Assembly (NCBI GenBank): GCA_038279365.1
Contig: JAYODI010000026.1
Span: forward strand, 1 to 62,741
Length of the DNA: 62,741 bases
DNA from: Candidatus Latescibacterota bacterium
Lineage (GTDB): Bacteria; Latescibacterota; UBA2968
Reading direction: 5' to 3'
How positions within the stretch are numbered: position 1 is the stretch's first letter; each line of letters starts with the position of its first letter. The notes under the pieces are model-generated. The model worked only from the letters and a program-made list of their open reading frames with translations, ran no database searches and was not told the DNA's origin. Positions 38,374 through 49,669 of this stretch are shown one piece after another. Made by a program: the position numbers and the translations under genes.

Positions 38374-39339
38374 ATGAGCGAGAAGCCTTTCGGGGGCGAG
38401 GGGGAAGTCATTTGTATGGTTTGTAAGACGGCCATTCCTGTGGCACGTCTTCAGGTTGTACCTGATGCGAAATTGTGCGTGACGTGTCAGGGAAAAGTTG
38501 AAAGGGGGTTGCTCGACCTTAACGCATTTTTGGTGGGCGATTTGGGGATTGAAGAAGAAAAAGAACCACAACCTTTGGAGATACAAGAAGATCGTTTGGT
38601 GGTAGGCACTTGGTCGGGTGGGTTTTTGGAAGTGGCCGATCAAAGTGGAAAAATGCGTGCGCTGTTGCGCGAAGGCAAAAAAGAAGAGGCACTGGCTTTG
38701 GTGCAGGCATTGCCAATTGAGGCACAGGCTGCACTGGTGGTGGTGGATGAAGATCCAGAAGAAGCCCTTTCTATAACGGGTATGGATCGTTTGGGAAACC
38801 CAGGTTATCGTTCTGAGGTGGTGAGTTTGTTGCCCACCGAGATGCTGACGGGGCTTATTGCCTATGACGGGGAGGAGAAACGGTTTAATACACGGTTGAT
38901 TCAGGCCATGACACCTGGCACATTTAGCCGAACAGTGTCTGATACTTTAGAGCCGATAGACAATGCTGAGGCACGCGCGGAGGTGACTTGGGAGTGGCTG
39001 GAGGCTTTGGCTGAGCTTCTCGATGTGAACAAACGCGCAGAATTGTTGCGCAGTGTCGAACCCGAATTGTTGGAGGACGCGCTGATTACACGTATTCACC
39101 ATTTTAACTTGAACAAAACGGTAACCTCTGTCAATATAGATGGTGTTGAGTGGGGCGTGGATATGTTTCGGGTATTTTCCGAAGACAGTGCCGTGGGGCC
39201 TTTGCCCAGCAAGTTTATTGAAGATGTGAAGGTGGGTAGTGTGATGGATTCGCTTTATGAAGCCGCTCCCGATGTGATGAGTGCGATGGTGCGTGGCGCT
39301 TGGGAGAGGCAATTTGATGGATGGGAGGATTTGGAATGA
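38374..39339 (+). CDS. TraR/DksA C4-type zinc finger fused to an unknown acidic helical domain
   Basis: CMVCKTAIPVARLQVVPDAKLCVTCQ matches C..C...Ip..Rl...P....C..C; RBS GGAGG. Confidence 0.75.
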   Translation: MSEKPFGGEGEVICMVCKTAIPVARLQVVPDAKLCVTCQGKVERGLLDLNAFLVGDLGIEEEKEPQPLEIQEDRLVVGTWSGGFLEVADQSGKMRALLREGKKEEALALVQALPIEAQAALVVVDEDPEEALSITGMDRLGNPGYRSEVVSLLPTEMLTGLIAYDGEEKRFNTRLIQAMTPGTFSRTVSDTLEPIDNAEARAEVTWEWLEALAELLDVNKRAELLRSVEPELLEDALITRIHHFNLNKTVTSVNIDGVEWGVDMFRVFSEDSAVGPLPSKFIEDVKVGSVMDSLYEAAPDVMSAMVRGAWERQFDGWEDLE

Positions 39340-40292
39340 ATCCATTGGCAAGATTAGATTTAAGCCGATTCCAGATTGACGATGAAAGTTTTGTTGGGCA
39401 AGCCATTGCTTTGGGCATGCGTTTTAACAAACTCCCCTCTCAGACATCGGATGCTTTGTTGGGTTTTTTGCGTGCTAAGGGGTTGTATTATGGGCAACGC
39501 AATCGATCTGGCATTGCCATTGCCAGAGATGGTTTGGAGCGCGGTGTGCGCCAAGCGTTGATCTGTTTGGATATGGGGCTTAAAGATACGTCTCAAGGCG
39601 ATCTCAATACGGCTGTTGAGTTGTTGGCGCAGGGTGATTTTGAGGCCATTCGAAAAAATGGATATCAAATTGCTTTTTTCCAATTGCAAGAAATTCGCAA
39701 AAGCAGTTTGGCTTTGCTCACGCGCCCAACGGCTACTTTTTTACAAGAAGAACATCGCAATTTGATGCGGTGGTCTACTTTGGTACCCGAAACGTGGACA
39801 CGGCCTCCAGATGATTTAGAAGAAGAAGCGATGTTGGTTGATGTCCGAACAGATTATGGTGTTTTTTTGCAAACGCAAGCCCGTATGGATTTTCTCAATT
39901 CGATTCCCAATGAGGCGCTTAATCAATTGCAACAATCGGTTTCGGATGGTCGATCTTTTGATGGTTTGTTGCGCAATTTGATTTTGGCGTTGGCGTTGGA
40001 TTTGGAAACACTTTTGCCATCGGCGATGGAAATCGAACGGTTTAGAGAAACGTGTTTTGAACAAAACAAAATTCGGCCTGAGATTCGGGATAAGGTTTTG
40101 CATTTGATGGACCGCCAGCTTGAAGCCAGTGTTTTGAAGGCGTTTCATCGGTCTGAAATTCGTACATCAGTAGAAGATGAAATTGAATTTTTAGAGCAAG
40201 TTTCGGGTGGCGATATGGTCAACTTTTTCTTGTTGCCCGGAAAAAAGGCTGTGACGGCAGATGATTTATTGGGGGGAGAGGCAATCGCGTAA
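39336..40292 (+). CDS. hypothetical helical protein (possibly DUF6178-related), translationally coupled
   Basis: ATGA overlap with the upstream gene and RBS GGAGG; the family guess is from memory only. Confidence 0.65.
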   Translation: MNPLARLDLSRFQIDDESFVGQAIALGMRFNKLPSQTSDALLGFLRAKGLYYGQRNRSGIAIARDGLERGVRQALICLDMGLKDTSQGDLNTAVELLAQGDFEAIRKNGYQIAFFQLQEIRKSSLALLTRPTATFLQEEHRNLMRWSTLVPETWTRPPDDLEEEAMLVDVRTDYGVFLQTQARMDFLNSIPNEALNQLQQSVSDGRSFDGLLRNLILALALDLETLLPSAMEIERFRETCFEQNKIRPEIRDKVLHLMDRQLEASVLKAFHRSEIRTSVEDEIEFLEQVSGGDMVNFFLLPGKKAVTADDLLGGEAIA

Positions 40293-40315
40293 TATTTTTT
40301 TAAAGGCGACGTGTT

Positions 40316-40347
40316 GGGGCGTGCTCGTGAGGGTACGTCCCATTTTT
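40316..40347 (+). terminator. probable terminator
   Basis: ggggcgtgctc-GTGA-gggtacgtccc (with G-U pairs) followed by a T-rich tract. Confidence 0.55.
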
Positions 40348-40444
40348 ATTTTTAAGAACACACAGGGTTTGAAACAGGGTGATGTGATTAAAAGACGAAT
40401 GTTGTTGTATCTCAAAAAGGGTGTGCTTTTTTTGTTGTCGGTAT

Positions 40445-40470
40445 GAACCTCTATCATCCAGGCGGTGTCA
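40445..40470 (+). promoter_or_regulatory. candidate ECF-sigma autoregulatory promoter
   Basis: GAACCT-N16-GTCA about 20 nt upstream of the sigma start codon. Confidence 0.4.
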
Positions 40471-40489: not shown

Positions 40490-41080
40490 ATGACTCCAAC
40501 AGATGCAGAACTGATACAGCGCATATTAAACCGAGACACAGATGCATTTGCTGTGTTGTTTGATCGGTATATGGTTCAGGTGACCGATCACTTGGCACGT
40601 ATGTTGAAAGAAAGTGGTGCCGCAGATGATGTGGCACAAGAAGTGTTTTTGCGTGTTTGGAGTCGGGCAGATCAGTGGTCTGGTGCGGGATCATTTCGGG
40701 CGTGGTTGTTGCGCATTGCGACCAATTTGGCTCTGAATCATTTGCGAGGCAAAAAACGTCGTCGCGAATTGCCTTTGGAGATGCCTTCTCTCTATGACGA
40801 CGATGAAGATGAAAACCTTGTTCCTGGTTGGATGATCGATCACGCATCTTTGGGCCCAGATGCACAGATTGAACAATCGGAACAACAGCAGATGATTCGG
40901 CAAATGATTTCCGATTTGCCAAAAGATAAACGAGAGGTTTTTGAAATGGTTCACAAGGATGAGTTGGCCCTTCAGGAGGTGGCCAAGCGCTTGGACATTC
41001 CTGAAGGAACTGTAAAGTCTCGGTTGTTTCACGCACGAAAAAGATTGGTCCTTGCTTGGCAAGAAAGAACAGGGGAATAG
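40490..41080 (+). CDS. ECF (group 4) RNA polymerase sigma factor
   Basis: ADDVAQEVFLRVW, FRAWLLRIATNLALN (sigma2); EVAKRLDIPEGTVKSRLFHARKRL (sigma4). Confidence 0.95.
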   Translation: MTPTDAELIQRILNRDTDAFAVLFDRYMVQVTDHLARMLKESGAADDVAQEVFLRVWSRADQWSGAGSFRAWLLRIATNLALNHLRGKKRRRELPLEMPSLYDDDEDENLVPGWMIDHASLGPDAQIEQSEQQQMIRQMISDLPKDKREVFEMVHKDELALQEVAKRLDIPEGTVKSRLFHARKRLVLAWQERTGE

Positions 41081-41146
41081 CGCACCACGGGCATTGGTGA
41101 GATGTTTTTTCGCATTTGGACATCATCATGTTTTGGAGGATATAAA

Positions 41147-44100
41147 ATGGCAATTGATATGCAGGCACCGTGGCATAAAGATTCTTGGGATGCATTTTTG
41201 CAAAATGGGTTGCCCCGTTTATTGGCTGACCGTGTGGGGATTGCAGGATACAATATTGAGCAGATAGATACCTATTTTTGTCGGTTGCATTTGTCAGTGA
41301 AGGGAACGCGGGGCTTAACCGATGTGGTTTATGAAAATATCCCTTTGTGTGATGACTTGGGGCGGTTTCGTGTTGATGGGTATACGCGCATAGTGGTACC
41401 CAAACCCACAGAAGTAGATTTGGAAAAGGCCGACATTTTGTGTGTGGGTGAGCAAGTTTTGGGGTTTTTGGCTACACAAATTGGCGACGTGCCAGAGGGT
41501 ATTGTGGGAACAGATGCGATTTTGGCGTGTTTGCCTTTGGCCGAGTGGATTCACGAATTTTTTGTTTCCGAACCGACGTCACAGTATCTGCAAATGACAA
41601 ATGATGTGGATATGCACACCCACTTGCGACGCATTACTTTATACACACTTTTGGGTGAAGCGATTGACGACAAGTATGTCGTTCACCCGTCACAAGAAGG
41701 GCGTGTTTGTTTGTTTGCCACACCCGAAGGACCCAATATTTCGCGCATTTTTGAAGTGGCGTTAGGGGCAACGATTCGAGATGGCAAGTTGATTGTTGTG
41801 GATGATACCCCTGCAATGGCCTTGGGGAGCAATGCGTCGATGATTCCGTTTTTGGAACACGACGATACCAACCGGTCTTTAATGGGCATGAATATGGTGC
41901 GCCAATGGGTGGGCGTGCCAAACCCAAAGTGGCCACGTGATGAGGTGGGTGTTTGGCACACCTACCACAGTGAATATGACGGGCTCAAACCCGAAACAGA
42001 ACCGGCCTTGGTGCAAACGGGTTGTGAGACAGATGATGCTTACTTTTGGAAAGGCTATAATCTGCTGACCGCTTTTATGTCTTGGGACGGCGATACCTAT
42101 GAAGATGGCGTGGTGATCAGTGAGTCGGCGGCAAAAAAAATGACGCAACCCCAAGGTGTGGCATTGGGCGATAAATTGAGCAATCGACACGGTTACAAGG
42201 GGGTGGTGACACGGATTTTACCCGACGCAGATATGCCATACTTGCCCGATGGCACGCCGGTGGAATTGATTGTGAGTGTGTGCTCATTGCCTTCTCGAAT
42301 GAATATGGGGCAATTGCGAGAGGCGGCATTGGGGCGTGTGGCAAAGGCCGAGGGCAAACCCGTGATTGTGCCGCCATTTGCTGGGCCGTCAACGGAAGAA
42401 ATAAAAGGGCGATTGAAAGCCAATGGATTGTCTGATGATGGAATGGAACAACTGACGTTAAAGGGGAATGCACTTCCGCGACGCACAACAGCAGGGTGGG
42501 TGTATTGGGGGCGGTTGAGTCATATGGTGAAAAATAAGATTCACTTTGCGGTGCATCCTCAAGAGAGAGGGCAGTTTTTGGGCGAGATGGAGTTTGTTGC
42601 GCTGAAAGAAGCGGGTGCGGTGGCTCTTGTGAATGAGTTTTTCAATACGTGTTCTGCCGAACATCCAGAAGCCGATTCTTTGGCTGATCGTGTGTCTAAT
42701 GGAACGGTATCACCTGCTGGTGCACCTTCGGCAAGATATGGTGCTTTGACCAGGCGATTAGGCTGTGACGGCGTGGTGGCGTCACTGGGTGATAAAGGCG
42801 TGTCATTTTCAACTAAACAGTCGGGTGATTTTTCTTTGGCGCGTTCGGTGGCGCATCCGTGGCTTTCCGGGCATCAATTGTCTCATATTGGGCAGACCGA
42901 TTTGCCTGAGGGCGAGGCGGTGCAAGAGGCCAACGCGCGTTTGGAACAGATGGTTGCCAAGGGTGCGCCTCAGGTGCTGATTGATCGGGCAACAGACACC
43001 TTGTCAGAGCGGGTTCAGGCTTTTTATAATGTGTTGGTGACACGAAGGGATTTGTGCTTTCAGGCGCGGGTAATTTTTAGCGGGCGTTCGGTCATTGTGC
43101 CCAATAAACATTTTAAATATGACCAAGTGGGTGTACCAGAAGAAATGGCGTGGGCATTGTTTGGGCCGTTTGTGACACGGGCATTGGGCAGTGACACGGA
43201 CGTGAAAAAACGCTCGAAAAAAGCAGAGCAGGCGTTGGATGAGGTGATGGCAAAAATGTGGATTGTTTCAACGCGTGCCCCTGCGGTGTCACCCACTTCG
43301 TTTTTGGCATTTCATCCTGTGCGTGTTTCGGGTGATGCGATTCAAGTGCCCATTTTGAGCAGCAAGCTGATGGATGCCGATTTTGATGGCGATCAAATGG
43401 CTTTGTTGTTGCCCGTGACGGATGAGGGGCAACAGGCTGCGCGCGATCATTTAACTGTTAAGGCACATTTGACCCGCGACCCCAGTTTGATTCGGCGTGA
43501 AAAAATTCACCCCATGCACGACGCGTTATTTGGTTTGGCCACGTTGAGTATGACCGATGCTGGTTTGAAGGCATTGGAAGACATTGCGGGGGAACCTTTC
43601 AAGCGTGAAGGCAAGTTTTTAGATAAGAAGCATTTTATCGCTTTGCTGGAAAATGTGATGATCAAAGACGGGGCAGAAGCGGTGCTGGACTTGTCTGAAC
43701 GGTTGCAAAGAAAAGGTTTTGAAGTGGCCCAGCAAACAGGGGCTTCGATGGGTGCGTTTTTGGGTGGCGACCTTAATTTGCCCAATCCGCCAGAAGGAGA
43801 TGATGTGGATGAGTGGCGATCTTATGTGGATGAGTTGACGGCTGAATTGAGTCCGTTCGATGATTTTAACGATGACGAATTTGGCGTGATCGCCATGTTG
43901 GCCGAATGTGGTGCAAGGGGCAATTGGACACAGTTACGGCACTTTGTGGCCCCTCAGGGGTTGGTTCGCACCGCACGAGGTGACTTGATGCCCATTCGGC
44001 ATTGTTACCGAGATGGTCTCACCCCCCAAGAGATTATCACACGAACCGTTGGCGCACGCTTGGGCTTGGCCAATGCGTTGGCTGAAATGATGGAGGTCAA

Positions 44101-44257
44101 CCGCGATTTGTCCATTCAAGGGGCACCCAGTGGTTACGGTGTTTTGTCACGCGCTCGTCGCTCAGAAAAACCTGGCGTGGTGTTTGCCCGGGCCGCACAA
44201 AAGGGTGAAGTGGACCCTTTGACGGATGAATACAGTCGGTTGTTTGTTGGGGTGTAG
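41147..44257 (+). CDS. miniaturised fused beta/beta' DNA-directed RNA polymerase-like protein (1036 aa)
   Basis: RpoB motifs THLRR, TPEGPNI, IPFLEHDD.NRSLMG.NM.RQ, YEDG, GDKLSNRHGYKG, DMPYLPDGTP, PSRMN.GQ, GQ.LGEME, then RpoC motifs SGRSVI, RAPA, DADFDGDQM, GARG, GL..QE, GARLGLA, all in one frame; RBS GGAGG. Confidence 0.92.
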   Translation: MAIDMQAPWHKDSWDAFLQNGLPRLLADRVGIAGYNIEQIDTYFCRLHLSVKGTRGLTDVVYENIPLCDDLGRFRVDGYTRIVVPKPTEVDLEKADILCVGEQVLGFLATQIGDVPEGIVGTDAILACLPLAEWIHEFFVSEPTSQYLQMTNDVDMHTHLRRITLYTLLGEAIDDKYVVHPSQEGRVCLFATPEGPNISRIFEVALGATIRDGKLIVVDDTPAMALGSNASMIPFLEHDDTNRSLMGMNMVRQWVGVPNPKWPRDEVGVWHTYHSEYDGLKPETEPALVQTGCETDDAYFWKGYNLLTAFMSWDGDTYEDGVVISESAAKKMTQPQGVALGDKLSNRHGYKGVVTRILPDADMPYLPDGTPVELIVSVCSLPSRMNMGQLREAALGRVAKAEGKPVIVPPFAGPSTEEIKGRLKANGLSDDGMEQLTLKGNALPRRTTAGWVYWGRLSHMVKNKIHFAVHPQERGQFLGEMEFVALKEAGAVALVNEFFNTCSAEHPEADSLADRVSNGTVSPAGAPSARYGALTRRLGCDGVVASLGDKGVSFSTKQSGDFSLARSVAHPWLSGHQLSHIGQTDLPEGEAVQEANARLEQMVAKGAPQVLIDRATDTLSERVQAFYNVLVTRRDLCFQARVIFSGRSVIVPNKHFKYDQVGVPEEMAWALFGPFVTRALGSDTDVKKRSKKAEQALDEVMAKMWIVSTRAPAVSPTSFLAFHPVRVSGDAIQVPILSSKLMDADFDGDQMALLLPVTDEGQQAARDHLTVKAHLTRDPSLIRREKIHPMHDALFGLATLSMTDAGLKALEDIAGEPFKREGKFLDKKHFIALLENVMIKDGAEAVLDLSERLQRKGFEVAQQTGASMGAFLGGDLNLPNPPEGDDVDEWRSYVDELTAELSPFDDFNDDEFGVIAMLAECGARGNWTQLRHFVAPQGLVRTARGDLMPIRHCYRDGLTPQEIITRTVGARLGLANALAEMMEVNRDLSIQGAPSGYGVLSRARRSEKPGVVFARAAQKGEVDPLTDEYSRLFVGV

Positions 44258-44288
44258 ATAGGTAATAGTGATTGAGAATGTGAGTCGT

Positions 44289-44325
44289 AAGGCGTGTCTG
44301 CAAACAAGCAGACACGCCTTTTTTT
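44289..44325 (+). terminator. intrinsic terminator closing the sigma-polymerase operon
   Basis: aaggcgtgtctgc/gcagacacgcctt followed by a T tract. Confidence 0.85.
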
Positions 44326-44417
44326 GAAACAAAATGGAGCAATAACCGACAATCTCAGGGAATCATTTGTTCAAATGACCTATTGATAAATCACAAATAT
44401 CTCTCGCCCCAATCACC

Positions 44418-45404: not shown

Positions 45405-45800
45405 ATGGGCAAGAAAAAACGATTGGCCGAGGCCGAGTGGGAAGTGATGGACTGTGTGTGGGATTTTGACCATCAGGTGACGGTGCGCGAGGTGCACGAA
45501 TTTTTGTATCCCAATGGGGAGAAAGCCTATACCACCGTTCAGACGATTATGAATATTTTGACGGAAAAAGGCGTTCTGTTGCGTCAAAAAATTGGACCCG
45601 TCAATGTCTATTCACCGGCTTTGTCACGTGAAGATGCCGCCCGTGATGAAACGCAGTCTTTGGTGGCGCGTATGTTTGAAGGCTCGTTTGGTGCATTGGC
45701 CACTTATTTGGTGAATTCTGACACGCTTTCTCGCGAAGAATTGGACGAATTAAAGTCGCTTATTGATGAACGTGAGCGCGATCAGGGAGGAGGTAAATAA
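45405..45800 (+). CDS. BlaI/MecI/CopY family repressor
   Basis: LAEAEWEVM..VW, AYTTVQTIMNILTEKG, FEGS; RBS AAGGAG. Confidence 0.93.
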   Translation: MGKKKRLAEAEWEVMDCVWDFDHQVTVREVHEFLYPNGEKAYTTVQTIMNILTEKGVLLRQKIGPVNVYSPALSREDAARDETQSLVARMFEGSFGALATYLVNSDTLSREELDELKSLIDERERDQGGGK

Positions 45801-48800
45801 TGATCCATACCTTGATTCAACTCGCCGAATCTTGGTGGCCGCTTTATGCGGTACATATGCTCGAAACGTCGTTGTTCATTTTGGTTGTGTGGGCACTTGA
45901 TCGGTGGGTGCATTTGGATACGCGACTGCGCTATTCATTGTGGCTGTGTGCATTGGTGAAGACGTTTGTGCCGCCTTTTTACGCGTTGCCTTTGCCTACG
46001 TTTTTGTCTGAGGCACCCACGCCCGTTCAGCCGGTATCCTTTGGTGGGGAAGCTGTGTGGTCAGAGATGTCTTATGTTGCGCCTGTTGCGTTGCCACCTG
46101 AGCCGATTCCAATGGTCTTTTGGGCTTTTACGCTGTGGAGTGTATCAGTTATTGTTTTTGTTGGGATGACGCTGTGGCGCAATCTCGCTTTTCAACGCAC
46201 GTTGGGCATTGCGAATCCCGTGTCTTTGTCTGGCGATTTGGACGATTTGACCCAAGGAGCCAATCTCAAAGTTTTCTCAAAAGCCAATCTCACATCTCCG
46301 TTGCTGGTGGGCGTGGTGAAACCGCGTTTGTATTTGCCATCCACTTGGCAAACCTGGACGCCCACCCAATTACGCGGCATTGTGGCGCATGAATTGGCGC
46401 ATTATCACAACCGCGATTTGTGGGCATTGGCCTTCCAAGTTTTGGCCACGGTGTTTTGTGGTCTTAATCCTTTGATTTGGCTGGTGAACCGTCGCTTGGC
46501 GCATTTGCGCGAGTTGCGTTGTGATGAAGATGCGTTGCTCAAGTCTGGCATTTCACCCGTGGAATATGGCAAGTTGCTTTACGCGTTTTTAGATGCCAAT
46601 GCACACCCAGGGTTGCCCGCGTTGGGCTTTAACGAAAAAGACACACCGCTTAAGAAACGTTTTGAACACGTTCTCAATTTTAAGGGGGGCACGATGAAAC
46701 GATCCAAATGGCAATACGCAATTCCAGTTTTGGTCGCCTTGGCGATTGTGCCGTTTTCAATTCGAGAAACATATTCACAACCTCAGGAAGTGGTGCAAAA
46801 AGCAAGTGACACACCTTTATTGAACACGCCATCAAGTGAACAGGGGAGAATACGAGTCAAACCAATCAAGCGGATTCCAGCCTCCTACCCAGAGAGCGCA
46901 GAGAAGAATGGCATTGAAGGGTATGTGCTCGCGGAGTTGACGATTGATCCTGATGGCACGGTCAGTGGTATTACCATGCTTGAAGGTGATACGATGTTTT
47001 TGAATTCGGTGACAACAGCATTGCTTCAATACCGCTATACACCGTTTACACACGCAAATTCGATTAAGAAAAAACAAATCATTGCGTTTCAATTGGCAGG
47101 AGACAGTCGCCCTGTGTATAGTCCTGCCGAAGAGGTGATGAAAAAATCAGACTTTGGCCTAATGGTTGTGATGGGTGAAGCACCCGGGGCTAATTCTGAA
47201 AATAAAACATCTACAGTTTCAGCAGATGTTTTAACACGGGTAGATTTTATGCCCTTAGGTGAAAAGCATGTTAAGATGTCATTGCTTGTGGGGGTAGACG
47301 GTGCGACGCCACGGGACCAAGAAGTGCTAAAAGCCAATCGGTCAGAGATATTAAAGACCATTCATAAGATTGTGAGTGGTGACGGACGAGATGTTTTTTA
47401 TGAAGAAGGTATGCGTTTTCAAGTGCGACAAGAAATTCGTTTCATGCTTGAACATCAATTGAAGGTCAAGATCAAAGATGTCAAACTTGGAGATGCCCAG
47501 GCCAAAACAGAGCTTACTCAAATGTCTGATATTTGGGTGAACTACAAGGGTGATATGTTAATAAACATGAATAAAGCCGTTACTGTCAATGAGCTGGAGG
47601 CGTCGTTTAGGTCATTAAAAAATGATCAAAATACAAAGACATTGTTGATGCGGGTAGATCGTGGTGCGCCACAACATATCATTGATGCCATTCAACAAAG
47701 TGCCACACGTGTAGGCATTGAGGTGCGCGATACTGGGGGCCCCCCATTGATTCAAGAGCCATCAGGTATCACACAGGCTGATGGTCTTCAAATTTTACAG
47801 TTTTTTAAAGTGGATCATAAACCCAAGCCGATTACCAAAGTGGATCCAATTTACCCACCTAATGCCAAAGCCAAAGGATTAACGGGTAAAGTGTTTCTCA
47901 AGTTTTTAATTCATACAGATGGCTCTGTAAGTGACGTGAAGGTGTTACGGGGAAAGGAAGAATTCCACCAAGCCGCAATTGACGCCATCCTCCAATACAA
48001 ATTTGAACCGGCCAAACATCAAGGTCAAATTGTACCCGTGTGGATGACTCAACCGATTTCATTTCAGTTAGAGAATTCTCTGGATAAATCAGAATCTTCA
48101 ACACCTGAATCGGATATGTTAAAGGTTTTGGAAACGAGAAATGCTGAAAGGAACCAAATTCTCGATGCCTCTCAAGTAGACGAAAAACCTCATCCCGCTC
48201 GAATCGTCACACCACAATATCCAGAAGAAGCAAAGGCGCAAGGCATCGAAGGAAATGTATTGGTGAGTGGTGTGGTGAATACGGATGGAACCGTAAGTGA
48301 TTTAAAGATTGTGAGTGGTGATGAGATGTTTCATGAGTCTGCTTTGGTAGCCGCAAAACAAATGCGGTTTCGCCCCGCTAAACATCAAGGCCAAACGGTT
48401 CCTGTGCGGTTGACAATGCCGATGGATTTTCGACTGAAAAGTTCCCAAAGCAATAGACAGTTACCATTGGGGCTTAGAGGAGGGTTTTTCGGGAATAAGA
48501 GAATGTCTGAAATCTGGATCAATACCAAAGGAGATTTGTTAATAGATCAATCCAAAGCCGTCACTCTGGAAACTCTGGGTTCTGAATTGGCACAGTTAAA
48601 AGAACAAAAGAATATTGATACCATATTGTTGAAACCTGATGTCAAAACACCTATGGACCACGTGCAAAAGGTTTTGGATGTTGTGGGGCAAACAGGGTTG
48701 AAAGTGCATATGTTCAGTTTTGATCCTGCTGAACTTAAGGAACGCAATAGGCCAAAGGATCTGAATAACATAGAGTTCTACCAGGCCGATGTGAAACCCG

Positions 48801-49669
48801 AACCGATTCATCAAGTGGCACCTGTTTACCCAGAAATAGCGCGTAAAGCGGGTTTGACGGGTAAGGTGTTTTTGAAGTTTCGTGTGAATGTGGATGGCAG
48901 CGTGAGTGATGTTTCAGTGTTGAGAGGGCAACAAATTTTCCGAAAAGCCGCAATGGAGGCGATTGAAAAATTCCGTTTCAAGCCCGCCGAATATGACGGC
49001 AAAATTGTTGCTGTGTGGATGACTCAACCCGTGAGTTTCAGATTGGGATTGGGAAAACCATTAGAAGCACAAACGCTTGATTTGGGAACCTTTACCATAA
49101 AAGTACCAAATGGTCATGATGGCAACGCATTGATACAACCTCGCCTGACCTTAAATGTCATATCGGCGGGTGCGGCAGATGTGATCACTGACGATTTGGA
49201 CAAAGCACAAAAAATGGCATCGTCTTATCTGTCTTCAATTCCTTTAGATCAGTGGGTATCGGCAGAACAACAAAATGCAATTTTAGAAGGTGTGCGAGAG
49301 CAAGTGAATGTCGGTTTTGGTGCGCCATTGATTAACAGTGTGACGTTTTCAAACCTCACCTTAACCCCTTCCGAATATCTCGCTGAGAATCGGGAATTCA
49401 AACTACACACCAATTTCCCAAATCCATTTAATCCTGAAACGGCGATTCAATATGAAGTGGCCGAACCCGTTTTTGTGAGAATGGAAATCTACAACGTCAC
49501 TGGGCAAGTCATTCGTACATTGGTTGCAGAAGACAAATCTCCTGGCAAATATGAAACACGGTGGGATGGCAAAGATGATCAGGGCAAACTTGTCGCAAGT
49601 GGTGTCTATTATTATCACATCAATGCGGGATCATTCAATGCCGTAAAGAAAATGCAACTGGTGAAGTAA
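45800..49669 (+). CDS. BlaR1/M56 metallopeptidase fused to four TonB C-terminal domains, ExbD-like and FliL-like domains and an FlgD-Ig-like tail
   Basis: HELAH, NPLIW, RELRCD; four YP..A...G..G.V repeats; NFPNPFNPET...WDGKD..G..VASGVY. Confidence 0.85.
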   Translation: MIHTLIQLAESWWPLYAVHMLETSLFILVVWALDRWVHLDTRLRYSLWLCALVKTFVPPFYALPLPTFLSEAPTPVQPVSFGGEAVWSEMSYVAPVALPPEPIPMVFWAFTLWSVSVIVFVGMTLWRNLAFQRTLGIANPVSLSGDLDDLTQGANLKVFSKANLTSPLLVGVVKPRLYLPSTWQTWTPTQLRGIVAHELAHYHNRDLWALAFQVLATVFCGLNPLIWLVNRRLAHLRELRCDEDALLKSGISPVEYGKLLYAFLDANAHPGLPALGFNEKDTPLKKRFEHVLNFKGGTMKRSKWQYAIPVLVALAIVPFSIRETYSQPQEVVQKASDTPLLNTPSSEQGRIRVKPIKRIPASYPESAEKNGIEGYVLAELTIDPDGTVSGITMLEGDTMFLNSVTTALLQYRYTPFTHANSIKKKQIIAFQLAGDSRPVYSPAEEVMKKSDFGLMVVMGEAPGANSENKTSTVSADVLTRVDFMPLGEKHVKMSLLVGVDGATPRDQEVLKANRSEILKTIHKIVSGDGRDVFYEEGMRFQVRQEIRFMLEHQLKVKIKDVKLGDAQAKTELTQMSDIWVNYKGDMLINMNKAVTVNELEASFRSLKNDQNTKTLLMRVDRGAPQHIIDAIQQSATRVGIEVRDTGGPPLIQEPSGITQADGLQILQFFKVDHKPKPITKVDPIYPPNAKAKGLTGKVFLKFLIHTDGSVSDVKVLRGKEEFHQAAIDAILQYKFEPAKHQGQIVPVWMTQPISFQLENSLDKSESSTPESDMLKVLETRNAERNQILDASQVDEKPHPARIVTPQYPEEAKAQGIEGNVLVSGVVNTDGTVSDLKIVSGDEMFHESALVAAKQMRFRPAKHQGQTVPVRLTMPMDFRLKSSQSNRQLPLGLRGGFFGNKRMSEIWINTKGDLLIDQSKAVTLETLGSELAQLKEQKNIDTILLKPDVKTPMDHVQKVLDVVGQTGLKVHMFSFDPAELKERNRPKDLNNIEFYQADVKPEPIHQVAPVYPEIARKAGLTGKVFLKFRVNVDGSVSDVSVLRGQQIFRKAAMEAIEKFRFKPAEYDGKIVAVWMTQPVSFRLGLGKPLEAQTLDLGTFTIKVPNGHDGNALIQPRLTLNVISAGAADVITDDLDKAQKMASSYLSSIPLDQWVSAEQQNAILEGVREQVNVGFGAPLINSVTFSNLTLTPSEYLAENREFKLHTNFPNPFNPETAIQYEVAEPVFVRMEIYNVTGQVIRTLVAEDKSPGKYETRWDGKDDQGKLVASGVYYYHINAGSFNAVKKMQLVK

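Follow-up and report, generated by a model that had tools for sequence, protein, structure and literature searches.

An extracytoplasmic function sigma factor gene linked to a pruned, single-chain RpoB-RpoC fusion in Candidatus Latescibacterota and other bacterial phyla

The window, i.e. the whole stretch of DNA analysed here, comprises 62,741 nucleotides (nt) of a Candidatus Latescibacterota bacterium (assembly GCA_038279365.1, contig JAYODI010000026.1, positions 1 to 62,741 of the forward strand). It carries a gene for a sigma factor of the extracytoplasmic function (ECF) type, followed by a single open reading frame (ORF) for a protein of 1036 amino acids (aa), here termed the mini-polymerase, in which shortened counterparts of the beta (RpoB) and beta' (RpoC) subunits of RNA polymerase (RNAP) are joined in one chain. 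This sigma-mini-polymerase unit is real and conserved, and it is apparently undescribed. The features of the operon are as follows:

40315..40352, + strand: terminator-like hairpin and T run that end the upstream gene (consensus scan only)
40444..40469, + strand: putative ECF promoter, with -35 element TGAAC (40444-40448), 14-nt spacer and extended -10 element CGGTGTC (40463-40469), 20 nt before the sigma start
40490..41080, + strand: ECF sigma gene, 196 aa (sigma2, acidic linker, sigma4)
41147..44257, + strand: mini-polymerase ORF, free of stops, 1036 aa, in which a pruned beta (residues 1-550, approximately) is continued by a pruned beta' (residues 555-1036, approximately)
44289..44327, + strand: intrinsic terminator, a 13-pair stem with a 6-nt loop (hairpin 44289-44320) followed by a T run (z -4.98)

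A first-pass annotation made from the letters of the sequence had recognised the uninterrupted ORF with RpoB motifs followed by RpoC motifs (YED at 42098, GDKLSNRHGYKG at 42167 and DADFDGD at 43373-43393), its position 66 nt behind the sigma gene and the closing terminator, all of which are confirmed; the absence of the trigger loop and the conserved promoter at 40444-40469 are additions to it. A GGAGG sequence (41135-41139) precedes the start at 41147. An alternative upstream ATG (41102) would give 1051 aa; the homologues begin at the 41147 Met, supporting 1036 aa. The hairpin upstream of the promoter would be a putative insulator of the sigma-polymerase operon. Three Pfam domains follow one another in the protein in the order Rpb2_3, Rpb2_6 and Rpb1_2, and the NCBIfam scores are far under all rpoB and rpoC cut-offs. 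Bacterial models score 194 bits vs 142 bits for archaeal models, and among 200 PDB sequences the 60 that match best are all bacterial. The ORF joins pruned versions of bacterial RpoB and RpoC in that order, and the beta-then-beta' arrangement matches the rpoB-rpoC gene order. The AlphaFold model (predicted local distance difference test, pLDDT, 89.6; predicted template modelling score, pTM, 0.88) retains both double-psi barrels, with the DxDGD triad in one and two lysines in the other. Residues 1-548 of the model superpose on bacterial beta (Z 24.6; root-mean-square deviation, rmsd, 3.1; 516 aligned) and residues 525-1036 on bacterial beta' (Z 17.9; rmsd 3.3; 480 aligned), while comparison with other two-barrel enzymes gave Z 9.9 for QDE-1 (486 aligned; rmsd 6.5), Z 8.9 for P74 gp62 and Z 7.5 for crAss gp66. 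Within the ORF the following parts can be distinguished:

41579..41905, + strand: beta hybrid-binding and rifampicin-pocket region, residues 145-253, up to the R678/N684/R687/Q688 block, with fork loop 2 deleted
42098..42202, + strand: beta barrel motifs, E319/D320 (equivalent to E813/D814), with the flap deleted, joined to K343/K351 (equivalent to K1065/K1073)
42905..43036, + strand: beta' clamp helices, the sigma2 docking site, residues 587-630
43373..43393, + strand: catalytic Asp triad D745/D747/D749 (equivalent to beta' D460/D462/D464), the N458 equivalent being Asp here
44024..44254, + strand: bridge helix (residues 960-991) and beta' C-terminal clamp segment, directly joined, with trigger loop and jaw absent

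Domain deletions and residue equivalents were mapped on Escherichia coli beta and beta' (2749 aa in total) across 90 family representatives sharing less than 70 % identity. Identical deletion junctions are found in 89-90 of the 90. The deleted elements include the lobe (median 23 residues vs 317 in E. coli), the flap (median 21 vs 249), fork loop 2 (16 vs 27), the clamp head and lid (27 vs 163), the rudder and switch 2 (38 vs 63) and the zinc ribbon, while switch 3 is partly deleted (20 vs 34). Between the bridge helix and the C-terminal clamp segment only 59 residues (range 55-73) remain, vs 569 in E. coli, so that trigger loop and jaw are gone, and the trigger-loop motif occurs in none of the 90 representatives. 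Furthermore, beta 690-796 and beta' 510-729, which presumably hold the alpha contacts, are shortened. The metal-, NTP- (nucleoside triphosphate) and hybrid-binding residues are near-invariant across the family. These include, in counts out of 90, beta' D460 (88), D462 (88), D464 (87), R425 (78), R352 (79) and R731 (84), and beta E813 (81), D814 (85), K1065 (83), K1073 (86), R1106 (88), R678 (89), Q688 (88), H1237 (83), E565 (86) and R529 (85). The beta' N458 equivalent is N in 54/90 and D in 24/90, the latter including the copy in the window. The bridge helix is modelled as a 32-residue helix, with its N-terminal half conserved and the equivalents of K789-T797 variable. An insert of 24 residues (41906-41995 in the window), present in part of the family only, separates the beta Q688 block from the conserved block that follows. 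As to what such losses entail, passages of PMC2874521 report that deletion of the trigger loop makes cellular RNAP about four orders of magnitude slower and weakens its discrimination, with NTP binding and weak catalysis remaining.

The losses could also be those of a non-catalytic decoy or sensor, a core mimic serving as the anti-sigma, which would hold the sigma and free it upon meeting an RNAP-directed inhibitor, a phage protein or a nucleic acid, leading to the synthesis of more decoy. Such a role would suit the loss of the trigger loop and of the templating half of the bridge helix, the lack of a common anti-sigma neighbour, a regulon that looks like the operon alone and the capture of an exporter gene into the operon in two lineages, and the ratio of non-synonymous to synonymous substitution rates (dN/dS) of 0.16 is compatible with some relaxation. 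However, the barrel lysines, metal-B acids and NTP-phosphate arginines would be superfluous in a decoy, yet they are 87-99 % conserved down to 32 % overall identity; the near-invariance of the catalytic residues argues against a pure decoy, which we consider unlikely. The degenerate rifampicin pocket would, moreover, make a poor sink for rifamycins: S531 and F514 are variable, D516 is kept in 47/90 representatives and fork loop 2 is gone, and the rifamycin sink was rejected on account of this degeneracy.

The homologues listed number 120 (42-97 % identical), with 114 of these aligning over 99-100 % of the length. In a profile search of 1.84 billion representatives the family ranks first, with long canonical-type fusions coming up no earlier than towards the end of the best 150 matches. 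The family set comprised 180 proteins of 940-1110 aa (shorter fragments were dropped), which were reduced to the 90 representatives (943-1101 aa). Clusters of the family in the ESM Atlas are named hypothetical or generic RNAP. Among the best 80 of 340 confirmed GTDB matches, the carriers are all apparently metagenome bins and are titled as members of the Latescibacterota, Poribacteria, Gemmatimonadota, Chloroflexota, Planctomycetota, Armatimonadota, Kiritimatiellae and Hydrogenedentota. The polymerase occurs in 63/153 genomes and 16/46 genera of the phylum of the window, in 6/301 genomes around a Chloroflexota genome (one of the six being the unpublished G425) and in 3/301 around a Planctomycetota genome. 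None of 33 pattern hits in viral contigs could be confirmed as a family member, and the phage and plasmid records yielded no match covering 80 %, in a search of limited sensitivity that leaves room for remote viral forms; a phage or plasmid origin found no support in these records. Several public records filed as plasmids (L125-L128) have the appearance of chromosome fragments: they carry complete rpoB-rpoC pairs, which in two of the records are surrounded by ribosomal-protein genes.

The patchy distribution and the occurrence of some split or truncated copies might point to an rpoBC duplicate in decay, a chimera of the assembly or a neutral passenger. This is highly improbable, as the common junctions noted above, the low dN/dS values and the location of many homologues on single-contig chromosomes speak against it, and the identity to host and non-host RpoB/RpoC is alike (33-35 %); the family data refute a relic. 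Pairwise dN/dS is about 0.16 for the polymerase (0.097-0.236; 334 non-independent pairs among 67 loci) and 0.12 for the sigma, values by which the mini-polymerase is under purifying selection. The first-pass annotation had named homologues with the same junctions, the dN/dS and the conservation of catalytic residues among the checks of its proposal; shared junctions, purifying values and conserved residues were found, none of the outcomes that it had given as refuting came up, and a chimera or pseudogene is rejected by these together with the full-length homologues and single-contig chromosomes. The separate canonical genes that it had also suggested seeking are present, with rpoC behind rpoB within the ribosomal-protein cluster on contig C20. 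The genome is 98.5 % complete, and this rpoC contains the sole other catalytic motif in an RNAP frame. Canonical rpoB likewise scores above the cut-off in 5/5 other carrier genomes tested.

Sigmas of one ECF clade are encoded upstream of the polymerase in 78/80 loci (65 within 300 nt and 13 at 0.4-2.4 kb), a few of them partial or broken. Among the 153 genomes of the phylum, 60 contain both genes, three the polymerase alone, one the sigma alone (at a contig edge) and 89 neither, counts that include kin and are thus not independent; two of the genomes hold two sigma-polymerase pairs. Pairwise identities of sigma and polymerase are correlated (Pearson 0.98 over 2211 pairs; 0.63 over 1820 distant pairs). 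ECF sigmas typically, although not universally, have a co-encoded anti-sigma or a regulatory extension. The family sigmas (192-222 aa) consist of sigma2 and sigma4 only, with no regulatory extension, and besides the polymerase no neighbour, anti-sigma included, is common across lineages; a third conserved gene in the unit was rejected, as the other neighbours track lineage. The linker carries the motif PxWMxD at sigma residues 112-117, and PxW(M/L/I/V)x(D/E) is found in 70/71 family sigmas vs 0/22 other sigma-like proteins of the genome, while ECF linkers in general lack conserved residues according to passages of PMC6648896. The main text and one supplementary file of the ECF reclassification PMC7826278 contain no Rpb1/Rpb2 (RNAP-subunit) term. 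The family, its junctions, selection, linkage, co-occurrence and the canonical rpoBC elsewhere bear out the initial proposal that the chromosome encodes an additional, streamlined protein that derives from RNAP and has a sigma dedicated to it. At nine of the 80 loci a gene for an MsbA-like ABC exporter, in two forms and two lineages, is interposed between the pair (L004:6165-7958, with seven close loci; L013:6002-7762), and in L014 an unannotated ORF of 396 aa takes its place. An Armatimonadota genome (L047:5146, L119:1444) contains a full pair and a second polymerase copy with the promoter and without a sigma.

The putative promoter TGAAC-N14-CGG(T/C)GTC precedes the sigma in 74/76 upstream regions, window included, with a spacer of 14 nt in 71 and 13 nt in three of the 74 sites. 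It was also found in 4/5 held-out sigma loci, and one of the two promoter-less regions carries the motif further upstream. When the genome was scanned with the promoter profile, the operon's own site, the sole strong match, scored 26.6 bits and the next 17.8 bits, the latter lying inside a 503-codon frame. A wider regulon was rejected, as the loose pattern gave 40 sites vs 34-59 in shuffles of the window genome. On these matches the sigma-polymerase circuit looks closed on itself, with no anti-sigma. Three intergenic sites of the form GGAAC-N13-NGGTGTCT, one base shorter than the family promoter (G000:C46:26834, C65:13379 and C196:17097, all + strand), are probably targets of another ECF sigma and possibly weak targets of the family sigma. 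A single RNA run yielded five short contigs of at least 99 % identity (those listed 151-183 nt, depth 2-3.5), two of which fell outside the operon, and was rejected as evidence of expression.

Modelling of the chain with its sigma, as had been proposed in the first-pass annotation, gave a complex score of 0.42 for polymerase residues 225-1036 with the sigma, vs 0.00 for the best of three controls, with runs agreeing in at least 30 % of contacts and a partner pLDDT of at least 58. The mark applied is reached by 116/157 solved complexes and 2/215 mismatches, and at scores of 0.60 or less the solved complexes that reach it number only 18, alongside both passing mismatches. The predicted complex thus weakly supports binding of the sigma, and its score may be a product of likeness to solved sigma-RNAP structures. 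In the sigma32 structure, passages of PMC10216364 give eight clamp-helix residues in contact with sigma2 (R275, R278, R281, L282, L285, I291, E295 and M298), four of which (R278, R281, L282 and I291) are kept or conservatively changed in the family. These contacts bear on a further alternative, namely a stand-alone nucleic-acid enzyme that would be expressed under sigma control and would not bind the sigma, such as a primase-like enzyme, an RNA-templated or untemplated polymerase, a hybrid nuclease or a pyrophosphorylase. The retained active site beside lost promoter-handling domains, the sigma-less second copy in L047 that still stands behind the promoter, the altered half of the sigma contact face and the fold similarity to QDE-1 (Z 9.9) are in keeping with it. 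It is, however, quite unlikely, given the kept clamp helices with conserved equivalents of R278, R281, P288 and I291, the family-specific sigma linker motif and the weakly predicted complex; it would furthermore leave the sigma without any brake.

The reading we prefer, to which we assign a probability of roughly 40 %, is that the mini-polymerase works in partnership with the sigma as a polymerase, slowly and without processivity, producing short RNAs and at the same time damping its own sigma. It is suggested by the intact catalytic centre, the loss of the parts that confer speed, processivity and -35 anchoring, and the self-targeted sigma without an anti-sigma. Firstly, the sigma on host RNAP, whose flap is needed to hold sigma4 on the -35 element, would transcribe the operon from its own promoter. 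The mini-polymerase would then fold without alpha or omega and bind this sigma, with the retained half of the clamp helices on its own side and the conserved linker on that of the sigma making the contact, and such titration would supply the negative feedback otherwise given by an anti-sigma. Finally, the complex would act as a Mg-dependent ribonucleotidyl transferase of low speed, low fidelity and little processivity, making short RNAs on a melted or single-stranded template. The output would be a short product or a readout of transcription stress, rather than regulon mRNA, and the signal may, as a guess, be the inhibition or stalling of the main polymerase. The first-pass annotation had offered an orthogonal transcription system, a primer or short-RNA synthetase and a sigma-sequestering decoy as possible functions; short-RNA synthesis combined with sigma binding fits best, while a processive orthogonal RNAP and the pure decoy are argued against.

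Several observations weigh against this preferred reading. YonO elongates efficiently without trigger-loop homology, which makes the slowness uncertain. The templating half of the bridge helix is unconserved (K789, T790, G794 and Y795), and the other four of the eight sigma2-contact residues are lost (R275 is Ala in 67/90 and E295 is Ala in 65/90, with L285 and M298 variable). Several copies are split or truncated (G012, G082 and G139), and in the complete chromosome L043 the polymerase is retained without sigma or promoter. The promoter profile was built from autoregulatory sites, which limits the claim of a closed regulon. Five other chromosomes gave 37 strict matches vs 15 control matches; among the 30 of the 37 inspected, four are the sigma's own promoter and 23 of the 26 others lie, by a rough test, in stop-free frames of at least 250 codons. 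The three intergenic GGAAC sites of the window genome also count here.

A further alternative is a true orthogonal machine, in which mini-polymerase and sigma would transcribe the operon, with any cargo, from a private promoter without alpha, omega or the host core, and the sigma linker or another element would replace the trigger loop. The kept active site, clamp, protrusion and hybrid-binding residues, the private promoter with its extended, conserved -10 element, the conserved sigma linker motif, the weak predicted complex (0.42 vs 0.00), transcription by YonO without trigger-loop homology and the MsbA-like exporter between the genes in 9/80 loci would all accord with such a machine. However, there is no flap for sigma4, yet the spacer is 14 nt in 71/74 sites, as for the flap-bearing host enzyme, and neither lobe nor jaw is available for downstream DNA. 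An orthogonal polymerase of the normal, processive kind would not be expected to lack trigger loop, flap, lobe and jaw, and we consider this machine rather unlikely. That the 1036-aa chain and the 196-aa sigma form a complete promoter-specific transcription machine without alpha, omega, flap, lobe and trigger loop is likewise somewhat unlikely.

The mini-polymerase resembles a canonical RNAP core with an ECF sigma in its 33-35 % identity, fold, catalytic residues and ECF-type sigma and promoter layout, and the alignments indicate that the canonical bacterial core is its direct source. In contrast to that core, it is a single chain of about 40 % of the size (1036 aa vs 2749 aa in E. coli), lacks lobe, flap, fork loop 2, zinc ribbon, rudder, trigger loop and jaw, and is accessory, being encoded outside the rpl-rpoBC cluster with no anti-sigma neighbour. 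The full-length RpoBC fusions of Helicobacter and Wolbachia, which share the beta-beta' order in one chain, are the main polymerase of the cell. Their models (NF007172 and NF011417) span 2839-2890 positions, and the mini-polymerase scores about 208 bits vs cut-offs above 4600. The Salmonella phage Arash protein gp206 (1525 aa) also combines beta and beta' domains in one chain; it is viral and larger. Duplicated rpoB genes of actinomycetes, such as that of Nonomuraea (PMC5431353), resemble the mini-polymerase as a second RNAP gene per chromosome. Unlike it, these paralogues, reportedly full length, serve the normal core and are not fused, pruned or sigma-linked. The multi-subunit RNAPs of the mReC lineage, as covered in parts of PMC7481178, a paper concerned with phage enzymes, have bacteria-like beta and beta' outside the housekeeping locus, and are in contrast viral and larger.

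YonO-like enzymes (SPbeta YonO, P23-45 gp64/gp96, crAss-like gp66 and QDE-1) are similarly single chains of about 100 kDa with both barrels and no flap. YonO, in passages of PMC5467207, is active and error-prone, with efficient elongation despite the lack of trigger-loop homology. The homology of these enzymes to cellular RNAP is, however, limited to the barrels, whereas that of the mini-polymerase extends along the whole chain; structural comparison of the mini-polymerase with them gives Z scores of 7-10, vs 18-25 with cellular subunits, and they have no cognate sigma and promoter. Closest in design is the yeast killer-plasmid RNAP, likewise a pruned beta-beta' fusion, with which it was compared by description. 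Passages of the respective papers describe pGKL2 K2ORF6p as a beta-then-beta' fusion of 982 aa that has lost about half of the sequence (PMC2919709), needs K2ORF7p for the beta' C-terminal regions (PMC6211774) and retains the flap insert (PMC7824862). It thus differs in belonging to a cytoplasmic linear element of yeast, requiring a second gene, keeping the flap and having no sigma, whereas the mini-polymerase occurs on bacterial chromosomes, includes the C-terminal clamp segment in the same chain and has the flap deleted. By its sequence it is a two-barrel polymerase of bacterial type that stands outside the canonical core, the full-length fusions, the YonO-like enzymes and the killer-plasmid enzyme. 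The first-pass annotation knew of no description, and none of the sigma-mini-polymerase unit was found in the open literature at the level of abstracts; subscription papers and bioRxiv supplements lie outside this scope, and a prior description there is possible.

Between the 16 family members compared and each of 18 canonical or fused sequences, that of the host included, identity averages 33-35 % (650 columns). The family members form a separate clade with a FastTree support of 1.0, in a midpoint-rooted tree with long branches, no archaeal outgroup and phage Arash omitted. A recent duplicate of the host rpoBC was rejected, as host and non-host distances are equal and the family forms its own clade. 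Three other single-chain fusions, P0249 (1948 aa), P0260 (1613 aa) and P0271 (1670 aa), branch between the family and the canonical sequences. The tree fits an old, stepwise pruning of bacterial rpoBC, and long-branch attraction could yield the same picture. The three fusions keep the flap and altered trigger-helix remnants; P0249 has an RpoA-like N-terminus and looks like an alpha-beta-beta' fusion. Similar clusters of 1330-1787 aa are found in the ESM Atlas.

To our knowledge, bacteria have been taken to possess one RNAP core common to all sigma factors, and in at least seven phyla the present sigma clade is linked to a heavily pruned core of its own. The family represents a natural deletion experiment on a cell-type active site without a trigger loop, on sigma initiation without a flap and on core folding without alpha. 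Whichever outcome holds would be new, whether an orthogonal polymerase of minimal size, of use to synthetic biology, a synthetase of short RNAs or a polymerase-derived anti-sigma, and all are testable with two recombinant proteins and the 26-bp promoter. Were the pair a complete machine, no sigma-dependent RNA polymerase would be smaller, and bacterial chromosomes would harbour a private, second system for transcription; the conserved sigma linker would then do the work of the lost domains, and the intermediate fusions of 1600-1950 aa would record the path of pruning.

Nine other ORFs of the neighbourhood were scanned (NadA, a nucleotidyl transferase, response regulators, a DksA-type zinc finger protein, DUF6886 and BlaI/BlaR-TonB proteins among the matches), which have housekeeping or regulatory roles or no assigned function. 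None of the nine is a ribosomal-protein gene, in agreement with the lack of rplKAJL/rpsL neighbours in the first-pass annotation. Two genes lie upstream of the sigma. The product of one (38374-39339, + strand) has 321 aa and, at its N-terminus, a DksA/TraR-type zinc finger, to which the DksA match is confined; that of the other (39339-40292, + strand) has 317 aa and matches DUF6178 weakly. Both genes precede the sigma in 17-18 of 81 loci, in close relatives only. Downstream, 45405-49669 (+ strand) encodes a repressor of the BlaI type and then a 1289-aa protein in which an M56 peptidase, four TonB C-terminal domains, ExbD and a FlgD-type sorting domain are fused.

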